A DNA stretch of 33,904 bases from IMG/VR virus record IMGVR_UViG_2541047875_000010, positions 1-33,904 of that record; one strand, 5' to 3'. Below, piece after piece: positions 5,766 through 6,239 of the stretch. Numbering within the stretch: position 1 is the stretch's first letter; each line of letters opens with the position of its first letter. A program made the translations under genes and the position numbers. This DNA is from a virus (lineage: Duplodnaviria; Heunggongvirae; Uroviricota; Caudoviricetes). Below the pieces are notes generated by a model. That model worked only from the letters and a program-made list of their open reading frames with translations, was not told the DNA's origin and did not search any database.

Positions 5766-5813
5766 TTTGCTGCTCCTCATCATATCGACCCTGCAAGGTC
5801 GGTTGGTTTCTCC

Positions 5814-5948
5814 ACAAAACAGAGAAGAACACCTGCGGTGGCAGCCGCCCGGGTGGATTGGGTTATGAGCCCGTCGTCCGGTGATGCTCTTCTCTGTTTT
5901 GTAAAAAGAGCGGTACCAGCCGGAAGCAAGTGTACAAACTGGTACCGC
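5814..5948 (-). promoter_or_regulatory. structured leader region: 15-bp perfect inverted repeat plus 10-bp hairpin followed by U-run on minus strand
   Basis: ACAAAACAGAGAAGA (5814-5828) pairs perfectly with TCTTCTCTGTTTTGT (5888-5902); GCGGTACCAG (5910-5919) pairs with CTGGTACCGC (5939-5948); on the minus strand the second hairpin is followed by CTTTTTAC, i.e. terminator-like. Confidence 0.35.
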
Positions 5949-6239
5949 CAAGACTACACACAGCATAAAGTTGTGGTGCCTCCCGGTGCCTGGCGAAGGT
6001 TGCACACCAGACGGGTGGGTATCCACAGAAGGTCGACTGTCAGCCTCAACCTTAACCCGCGTGCGCTGAGCCGCATTCACCACAACGCTAAGGATTCTCT
6101 CTGGTTGAAAATACTTAGCTGTTATGTGCCTGCTTTTAGCCACATCAGGCGAGGTGGACCTGGTTATTCCCCAACAACAAGGATTCGGCTAATCTGGATG
6201 ACTCTGTTCTTAGAGGGGATAATTAAATGGGAGCGATTT

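Follow-up and report, generated by a model that had tools for sequence, protein, structure and literature searches.

What occupies the space between the immunity region and the first leftward gene of a lambdoid prophage in which no N-like antiterminator gene can be recognised? We addressed this question for positions 5766-6239 (hereafter the interval) of the tailed-phage record IMGVR_UViG_2541047875_000010, of which the whole stretch of 33,904 nt was analysed and is called the window. An earlier note on this DNA, made from the letters alone, had proposed that a 15-bp perfect inverted repeat and a neighbouring 10-bp terminator-like hairpin form a put-like antitermination RNA or a regulated attenuator, and had named a processed small RNA (sRNA) as a fallback. 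Our results favour a different arrangement, to which we assign a probability of roughly 60%: the interval is the promoter-distal leader of a cI-repressed early operon and carries a small-RNA module and a separate hairpin that belongs to the gene yfdP, while read-through into the operon would come from signals located further upstream.

The window belongs to the lambdoid prophages of the SfV/SfIV/ST64B type. Neither its list of open reading frames (ORFs) nor its annotation contains an N-like ORF between the immunity region and yfdP, and the first early-left gene, described earlier as YfdP-like, is indeed named yfdP by the Prokaryotic Genome Annotation Pipeline (PGAP; 5403-5765, minus strand). 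To the right of the interval, a promoter scan revealed a PL-like sigma-70 promoter (TTGCCA-17-TAGATT, 6902-6874, minus), the spacer of which holds the 16-nt repressor operator TCTAACTTAACTTAGT (6876-6891), matching the operators of the cI/cro region at 7604-7619 and 7652-7668. On this sequence evidence we take the site to be the cI-controlled leftward promoter PL. We read the interval on the minus strand because of this operator-bearing promoter, because several pairs of the long hairpin described below are G.U and valid only on that strand, and because the minus strand of 5750-6240 has the stronger fold (z = -5.6, compared with -2.4 for the plus strand), a signal to which the long hairpin by itself (z = -6.7 minus, -5.4 plus) contributes most. 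A leftward transcript would thus meet the terminator first and the large stem-loop second, in the order that the earlier note had given.

The interval is non-coding. Substitutions are distributed evenly over the three codon positions (24/26/32 relative to ST64B, 46/37/37 to Klebsiella Kp4866-6 and 42/44/44 to Eeyore), indels measure 1, 1, 1, 7 and 20 nt and longer and are non-triplet, and the Klebsiella and Eeyore copies carry stop codons in all six frames. The open frames of the window, which has a G+C content of 0.55 in the interval, are therefore not conserved. They are also less extensive than had been claimed: the plus-strand frame is open over the whole interval (ORF 5577-6740) and the minus-strand frame only to 6143 (ORF 5403-6143), so that a stretch free of stops on both strands holds for the plus strand only, while the verdict that it is unlike protein is borne out. 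A protein gene, or an N-terminal extension of YfdP, could nevertheless be argued from these frames, from the 'frameshifted' hypothetical protein that RefSeq/PGAP labels at 5780-6083 (minus), from the coding sequences annotated here in the SfIV and PhiR49 records, and from an invariant core at 6074-6076 (minus) and its homologues, where AUG CGG CUN NGC GCA CGY GGN would encode MRL(S/C)ARG with few variable sites, all at third codon positions. In ST64B, however, this frame stops after 7 codons. A leader peptide starting at the invariant AUG is not favoured, since the AUG is missing from Klebsiella-type copies and the GGUG upstream of it stands too near. Together with the substitution and indel patterns, the stops in all frames of relatives and the covariation of the RNA helices, this makes a protein scarcely credible, and the annotations placed over the RNA module by PGAP and in SfIV and PhiR49 look like artefacts.

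The predicted 3' end of the module is an intrinsic terminator (5903-5949, minus). The arms of its hairpin, 5910-5919 and 5939-5948, are complementary at 10 of 10 positions, as had been noticed before, and the minus-strand RNA extends this stem to 13 pairs (stem-loop 5949-5909), followed by C-UUUUU-AC with the U5 at 5907-5903; a folded segment of 66 nt yields -21.4 kcal/mol. All seven relatives possess a hairpin of -15 to -34 kcal/mol with a different stem sequence, followed by U5-U7. This retention of hairpin and U-tract despite differing stems is the mark of an intrinsic terminator conserved on the leftward transcript, in agreement with the earlier proposal. Its G+C-rich stem, its U-tract and its presence in relatives are those of intrinsic terminators, and transcription probably ends here in vivo. 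Since the terminator precedes yfdP on the PL transcript, expression of yfdP would require read-through.

Upstream of the terminator, the small-RNA-type module (~185 nt; 6087-5903, minus) consists of a multi-helix domain and a single strand. The domain is an STnc100-like core of ~117 nt (5970-6086, minus), which is closed by the 9-bp helix P1 (6086-6078 with 5978-5970) and comprises P2, the invariant GGUGAAUGCGGCUNNGCGCACG hairpin region, variable middle helices and P5, a hairpin of the consensus NNNGG-AGGCA-CCNNN. The conserved single-stranded stretch UUUAUGCUGUGUGUAGUCUU that follows (5950-5969, minus) occupies the position of a small-RNA seed and is unpaired or weakly paired in per-sequence folds; its UGCUGUGUG(U/A)AGUCUU hardly varies among six phages belonging to four genera. 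When species-representative genomes were scanned for the core by pattern, it was recovered from Escherichia, Shigella, Citrobacter, Enterobacter, Klebsiella, Raoultella, Pantoea and Pseudescherichia.

A covariance search of the kind suggested in the earlier note gave a mixed outcome. At gathering thresholds, Rfam returned nothing in the interval; a permissive scan of the minus strand yielded STnc100 (5901-6116, 16.8 bits) and DicF (5908-5962, 18.9 bits). These weak matches become interpretable through the significant STnc100 scores of relatives, 40.6 bits in phiES15, 38.4 in SfIV and 35.1 in ST64B (E 1e-5 to 3e-4), all of which, like that of the window, lie below the gathering threshold of 47 bits. 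We built a covariance model, R1, on cores of the early-left and dicB types, keeping every STnc100 sequence out, by combining a manual structure with covariance-model realignment; RNAalifold on a MAFFT alignment recovered only part of the core, owing to gap placement. R1 detects exactly two copies in the window, one at 5948-6107 (minus, 94.9 bits) and one at 13972-14140 (plus, 36.3 bits, E 2e-8). The latter is a canonical STnc100 in the late-operon leader, after Q and before tRNA-Met, which Rfam model RF02076 scores at 129.4 bits (13963-14165). Because the STnc100-free R1 matches this canonical STnc100, the homology of core and STnc100 is reciprocal. A BLAST comparison of the leader with the window's STnc100 found merely a 14-nt identity, so that a covariance model is needed to see the relationship.

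The core helices covary. In 42 distinct sequences, the three helices examined are 97.3% paired and 11 of 19 pairs have changed on both sides, a result that none of 500 shuffles reached and that slid controls (28-50% paired) do not approach, with the caveat that the alignment was fitted to the model. About 30 junction nucleotides remain invariant across genera while the helices covary. The compensatory changes that the earlier note had put forward as a check are thus present, in the core as well as in the long hairpin. The 80 loci recovered with YfdP all encode an identical protein and were used for variant frequency, not for covariation.

The closest mapped counterpart of the module is sRNA-17, a 193-nt RNA defined by rapid amplification of cDNA ends and Northern blotting in a mEp460-like prophage of E. 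coli K1 RS218 (Front Microbiol 2020, PMC7719688). We placed it through its published 'full length' primers, AAAAGAGCGGTACCAGCCGGAAGCAAGTGTAC and CGTTGTGGTGAATGCGCAGGCTGATGCGCGAAA (PMC7719688). The former, the forward primer, is identical to window positions 5904-5935, and the latter corresponds to the base of the closing helix in mEp460, with the 5' end at CGUUGUGGUGAAUGCGC, the P1 base. From this placement, sRNA-17 consists of closing helix, domain, single strand and terminator. It occupies the same locus between immunity region and yfdP, is read from the same leftward strand, has a domain closed by GUUGUGGUG/CACCACAAC, followed by a single strand and then by the identical terminator sequence, and precedes the same long hairpin and yfdP. 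The bodies, in contrast, differ. The mEp460-type core scores 39 bits with R1, compared with 95-122 bits for SfV-type cores, the single strand reads AGCCACUGCUU in sRNA-17 and UGCUGUGUGUAGUCUU in the window, and the 193-nt body is not shared at the level of identity, as BLAST homology to mEp460 stops at 5951; the two bodies are related at covariance-model level only. The 'degenerative sRNA-17' rows of PMC7719688 match only the terminator sequence that the window shares, and its authors found no Rfam homologue of sRNA-17 (PMC7719688). The same study reports that yfdP rises ~95-fold in an sRNA-17 deletion (PMC7719688). We considered this rise as proof of the terminator and rejected it as such, because the terminator is retained in the construct, into which a resistance cassette was inserted.

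STnc100 and PasD, the latter obtained by Hfq RIL-seq, are related Hfq-bound prophage small RNAs encoded downstream of Q (bioRxiv 10.64898/2026.05.13.724894). They share with the window's element the core UGGUGAAU…, ACGCGGGUU…, CACCGGGAGGCACCCGGCACCA and a closing helix followed by a terminator, and the covariance models of STnc100 and of the core match each other's sequences. Unlike the early-left element, STnc100 lies in the late leader after Q, its P2 region and 3' single strand differ, and its P5 is missing from the window copy; with 16.8 bits against the required 47 and an early-left location, the element falls outside RF02076 proper. In the window's own STnc100 copy, the 3' hairpin CCCCUCCCCGGAGGGG (14128-14165, plus) is followed by CUGUGCUCUCUG where the Rfam consensus has a U-run; the terminator of the late leader may have been weakened or may lie at another place.

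DicF offers a third comparison. Its 190-nt species consists of a structured upstream domain plus DicF, with a 5' end cut by RNase III from the operon transcript, and this layout of structured domain and subsequent terminator is that of the window's module. DicF, too, is encoded in the PL-equivalent operon of a lambdoid prophage without N, it resembles the module in UUGGCGGUAnCAGUUU and in the terminator, and local alignment of the 3' part to the Qin DicF region scores 47, compared with 18.8 +/- 3.9 (maximum 37) for shuffled sequences. This likeness is confined to the terminator half: the window reaches 18.9 of the 48 bits needed for DicF (RF00039), DicF's 5' pairing region is not retained, and R1 does not detect the domain upstream of Qin DicF. 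A canonical core with a ~22-bp closing helix was seen elsewhere in a Qin-type locus of E. coli (L097, 7708-7870), where it fills the space from the DicF terminator to the dicB start codon; in the dicBF literature examined, we found no description of a core between DicF and dicB.

Homology to the mapped sRNA-17 and kinship with DicF and STnc100/PasD bring the processed small RNA, the fallback of the earlier note, nearest to the evidence. We suggest that PL transcripts which stop at the terminator, and whose 5' end is probably processed at the P1 base, would yield an RNA of ~185 nt as the counterpart of the 193-nt sRNA-17 and the 190-nt DicF species. The released RNA would presumably act in trans through the single strand 5950-5969.

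Several observations weigh against this proposal. The module alone is thermodynamically ordinary (z = -1.5), and a target search within the window for the conserved single strand found only the strand itself. A 7-nt deletion (CCGGCAC) at 5978-5990 (minus), between GGCAC repeats, removes the 3' half of P5 and destroys this conserved hairpin, so that the window copy may be defective. The deletion occurs only in the window among 37 fetched copies, the other 36 being intact, and it is confirmed as genuine by three complete E. coli genomes that match the window at 100% over 5700-6960. The abundance of the 'sRNA' in lysogens is, moreover, very low: in LB (lysogeny broth) culture, 4 of 11 million reads fell on sRNA-17 (PMC7719688), and the quantitative PCR primers for sRNA-17 span the whole leader. 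Finally, the core also stands directly before genes, with neither seed nor terminator, in Qin dicB and at other sites in Enterobacter and Citrobacter, which indicates that the core's own role is probably not trans pairing.

This last point leads to an alternative, in which the conserved core is a cis-acting RNA, either a put- or nut-like modifier of polymerase or an aptamer, for which terminator or ribosome-binding site serves as a platform and the small RNA is a by-product. In favour of such a function, one prophage has the same core before a terminator in both its early-left and its late leader, and the core keeps a fixed short distance to the Shine-Dalgarno sequence or ATG in Qin dicB, Enterobacter, Citrobacter and Pseudescherichia; this mixture of platforms recalls riboswitch and antiterminator classes. 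The ~30 invariant junction nucleotides amid covarying helices also fit, as does the format of P5, which resembles boxB in its 5-bp stem and pentaloop. A boxA-like (U/C)GCUCUUA stands 2-3 nt before P1 in several genera (loci L112, L108, L085 and L111), and the window has a degenerate boxA-like AUCCUUAG before the core at 6091-6098 (minus). However, this motif is absent from Qin-type and STnc100 copies, the DicF terminator precedes the core in Qin, the late operon is already served by a Q protein, and the window copy is without P5 and is nevertheless maintained in identical form in three genomes. Nor is the core known to have a ligand, a protein partner or a contact with polymerase. We consider a cis-acting core possible, but on balance improbable. 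In its most general form, the idea would make the P1/P2/P5 core one widespread, unrecognised cis-regulatory domain of lambdoid prophages, a polymerase-modifying or sensor RNA whose partner is a terminator at some loci and a ribosome-binding site at others, with small RNAs as terminated by-products; this generalisation is more tentative still, and we regard it as doubtful.

The inverted repeat that had drawn attention to the locus belongs to a separate element, a long branched hairpin of 89 nt (5814-5902, minus) in the 5' untranslated region of yfdP. Its perfect 15-nt arms (5814-5828 and 5888-5902) are present as described, and exceed the longest perfect arm in all 100 dinucleotide shuffles of 5600-6400 (mean 8.0, maximum 11). 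Extended to 25 nt (5814-5838 and 5878-5902), the arms are 84% complementary with 39 nt between them, and the stem comprises 20 contiguous pairs including G.U (5902-5883 with 5833-5814), a length that suits RNase III (~20 bp or more). The interior consists of an inner CCGG/CCGG helix around an invariant CGACGGG-CUCAUAA-CCCAAUCC and of a variable hairpin. Among seven homologues, 95.9% of the 28 pairs are kept and 6 have changed on both sides, compared with 44-56% in slid controls.

That this stem-loop is highly stable and conserved, adjoins the terminator and belongs to a prophage without an N gene speaks for a put-like antiterminator, or an attenuator partner of the hairpin at 5910-5948. The long hairpin is, however, transcribed after the terminator and therefore cannot antiterminate it. 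HK022 putL lies directly after PL and forms two tandem stem-loops (PMC9378689), while the repeat is ~960 nt away from PL and, on direct reading, has no similarity to putL in sequence or structure; an RNA of ~70 nt with two tandem stem-loops immediately after an early promoter does not describe it. The repeat also segregates with yfdP and not with the promoter region: it accompanies yfdP in mEp460, cdtI and Stx2 phages, whose upstream sequences differ, and phiES15, which has kil instead of yfdP, possesses core and terminator but no long hairpin. The put-like model is thus very unlikely, and an inverted repeat acting as antiterminator is not what the interval holds.

The long hairpin could alternatively be a second, long-stemmed intrinsic terminator, with an A-tract, a 20-bp stem and a UGUUUUGU tail, that insulates yfdP and the genes behind it from leaky transcription for as long as polymerase has not become termination-resistant. 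Its 3' arm ends in CUGUUUUGU and its 5' arm begins with ACAAAACA, it stands in tandem with the first terminator, and long-stem terminators are described, according to an abstract (PMC10325885), as resistant elements of other antitermination systems. Against this, the U-rich tract is itself paired in the lower stem, the invariant non-stem interior and the branched architecture would be superfluous in a terminator, and the distance of 35 nt to the yfdP ribosome-binding site suits an element of the 5' untranslated region. A second terminator is therefore unlikely as the main function. Most likely, as judged from its structure and position, the hairpin governs the processing, stability or translation of yfdP mRNA, or else provides a second stop; its stem would be long enough for RNase III.

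Within the long hairpin, CGGGCUCAUAACCC (5849-5862, minus) equals the anticodon stem-loop of the E. coli initiator tRNA, with three G-C pairs and CAU; a check of all 5426 genomes confirmed the tRNA segment, and the alignment score was reached by 1 of 500 shuffles. The loop reads CUCAUUA or CCCAUCA in other genera, and in the window its CUCAU is complementary to an AUGAG that overlaps the 5' end of the yfdP Shine-Dalgarno sequence. The latter is GAGGAG (5778-5773, minus), followed by the ATG at 5765-5763. Between long hairpin and gene lies a further small hairpin (5803-5784, minus), which is retained with a different sequence in ST64B, Kp4866-6 and Eeyore.

Read-through would be required for yfdP and the downstream genes. 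In the alignment, ST64B and Eeyore have one more terminator-like hairpin with U-tract, placed upstream of the core, which likewise argues that the operon needs processive read-through. The best-placed antitermination elements lie outside the interval and were missed by the earlier note. One is a promoter-proximal RNA (6867-6791, minus), a three-way junction with a ~65-nt core directly after PL, which at least seven genera of host are known by their phages to have between the cI stop codon and the first leftward gene, among them E. coli, Shigella, Salmonella, Klebsiella, Yersinia, Pectobacterium and Pantoea. In a plain MAFFT alignment, its three helices are paired in 99.1% of cells, and 9 of the 13 pairs have changes on both sides; none of 500 shuffles reached this result, and slid controls are 20-50% paired. 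With R2, a covariance model of this RNA, just one copy is detected in the window (93.8 bits), and the permissive scan yielded no Rfam match for it. The other is an exact rrn-type boxA, GCUCUUUAACAA (6765-6754, minus), the only exact copy in the window, which lies on the PL transcript 32 nt beyond the promoter-proximal RNA and directly after a hairpin (6787-6766, minus). The same succession of promoter-proximal RNA, hairpin and boxA is present in SfIV and in a Raoultella prophage. From their position and conservation, both elements are candidate antitermination signals that would supply the read-through needed for yfdP and the genes behind it, and the boxA may in addition shield the ~500-nt untranslated antisense passage through the moron described below from Rho.

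In its position, the 6867-6791 RNA is a counterpart of HK022 put, as both are structured RNAs immediately after PL in an N-less lambdoid phage. The folds differ, with two tandem stem-loops in put and a closed three-way junction with an outer helix in the window, the window has no second R2 copy after PR, and what the two have in common amounts to no more than ACGAAC and CAGGAUGA strings; a search of the HK022 immunity region (24000-32000) with R2 gave no match at E<=10 with default filters. With lambda nut and rrn sites, the window shares an exact rrn-type boxA on the PL transcript after a hairpin. It does not form a lambda-type nut site, as boxB with a GNRA-like pentaloop and the N protein are missing. 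The T5-like Providencia phages PSTCR5 and vB_PreS_PR1, the latter inside an annotated repeat_region, share a 40-50-nt core with 6867-6791 by BLAST. In mEp460, which does not carry the 6791-6867 element, a different leader block, …GUAUGGCACAUGC(G/A)(U/G)CGUUAGC…, is shared with Kp4866-6 (approximately 3555-3470 of the mEp460 locus and 3180-3090 of the Kp4866-6 locus, both minus). It holds a CAUGCGUCG string that also occurs in HK022 putL, and may be a different promoter-proximal RNA.

The remaining features of the locus are those of a mosaic prophage. The repressor cI (6956-7582, minus; S24 and helix-turn-helix domains) and a P22-type Cro (7680-7880, plus) are identified by protein annotation; a CII-like gene follows cro, the Q antiterminator is encoded at 12808-13191 (PF06530), and the leftward genes open with yfdP and then yfdQ (DUF2303). 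Between cI and yfdP, a moron ORF of 166 amino acids with a weak LprI-like match (6240-6740, plus) is inserted antisense into the leader; its own terminator (6766-6787, plus) coincides with the hairpin before the boxA. ST64B lacks the moron and has an 815-nt spacer without annotated ORF between cI and the yfdP homologue, from which we conclude that the leader was ancestrally continuous and is split in the window by the moron; SfV has a different, acidic ORF at this position. Homology to moron-less relatives stops at ~6197 by BLAST, and 6198-6239 is therefore assigned to the moron, probably as its promoter and 5' untranslated region.

BLAST comparison with phage genomes shows the interval itself to be a mosaic. 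Positions 5766-5951 are common to many phages, including mEp460, cdtI and Stx2 phages, 5766 to ~6197 to SfIV/SfV-type phages, 5802-6102 matches ST64B at 76%, and sub-blocks match Klebsiella, Cronobacter and other phages. A conserved block C (…CCACCUCGCCUGAUGUGGCUAAAAGCAGGCACAUAACA…; 6120-6197, minus) is shared with SfIV, Klebsiella Kp4866-6, Cronobacter phiES15 (97% over 38 nt) and Eeyore, is absent from ST64B and is thermodynamically ordinary in a shuffle comparison. No convincing promoter for the small-RNA module was found within it by promoter scan or by eye. ARAGORN detected no tRNA or transfer-messenger RNA in the interval. Matches to isrK and C4 antisense RNA above Rfam thresholds occur in the rightward region of the ST64B locus (its positions 5732-5920) and of the mEp460 locus (5675-5863), and an Rfam scan found neither RNA in the window.

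Part of the 1.26-kb leader query (5700-6960) matches 2897 of 5426 complete E. coli genomes, about half of them. What PGAP annotates here as a 'frameshifted hypothetical protein' is a defined RNA architecture. The element is an SfV-type variant within a known kind, the small RNA derived from a prophage leader, and one RNA domain connects sRNA-17, the 190-nt DicF species, STnc100/PasD and the dicB leader, which are treated separately in the literature examined; we found no report of this family link there. A single prophage can carry the domain in both its early-left and its late leader. For the large N-less group of SfV, SfII, SfIV, ST64B and their relatives, our data furthermore indicate where antitermination should be sought, namely in the promoter-proximal RNA and the rrn-type boxA.

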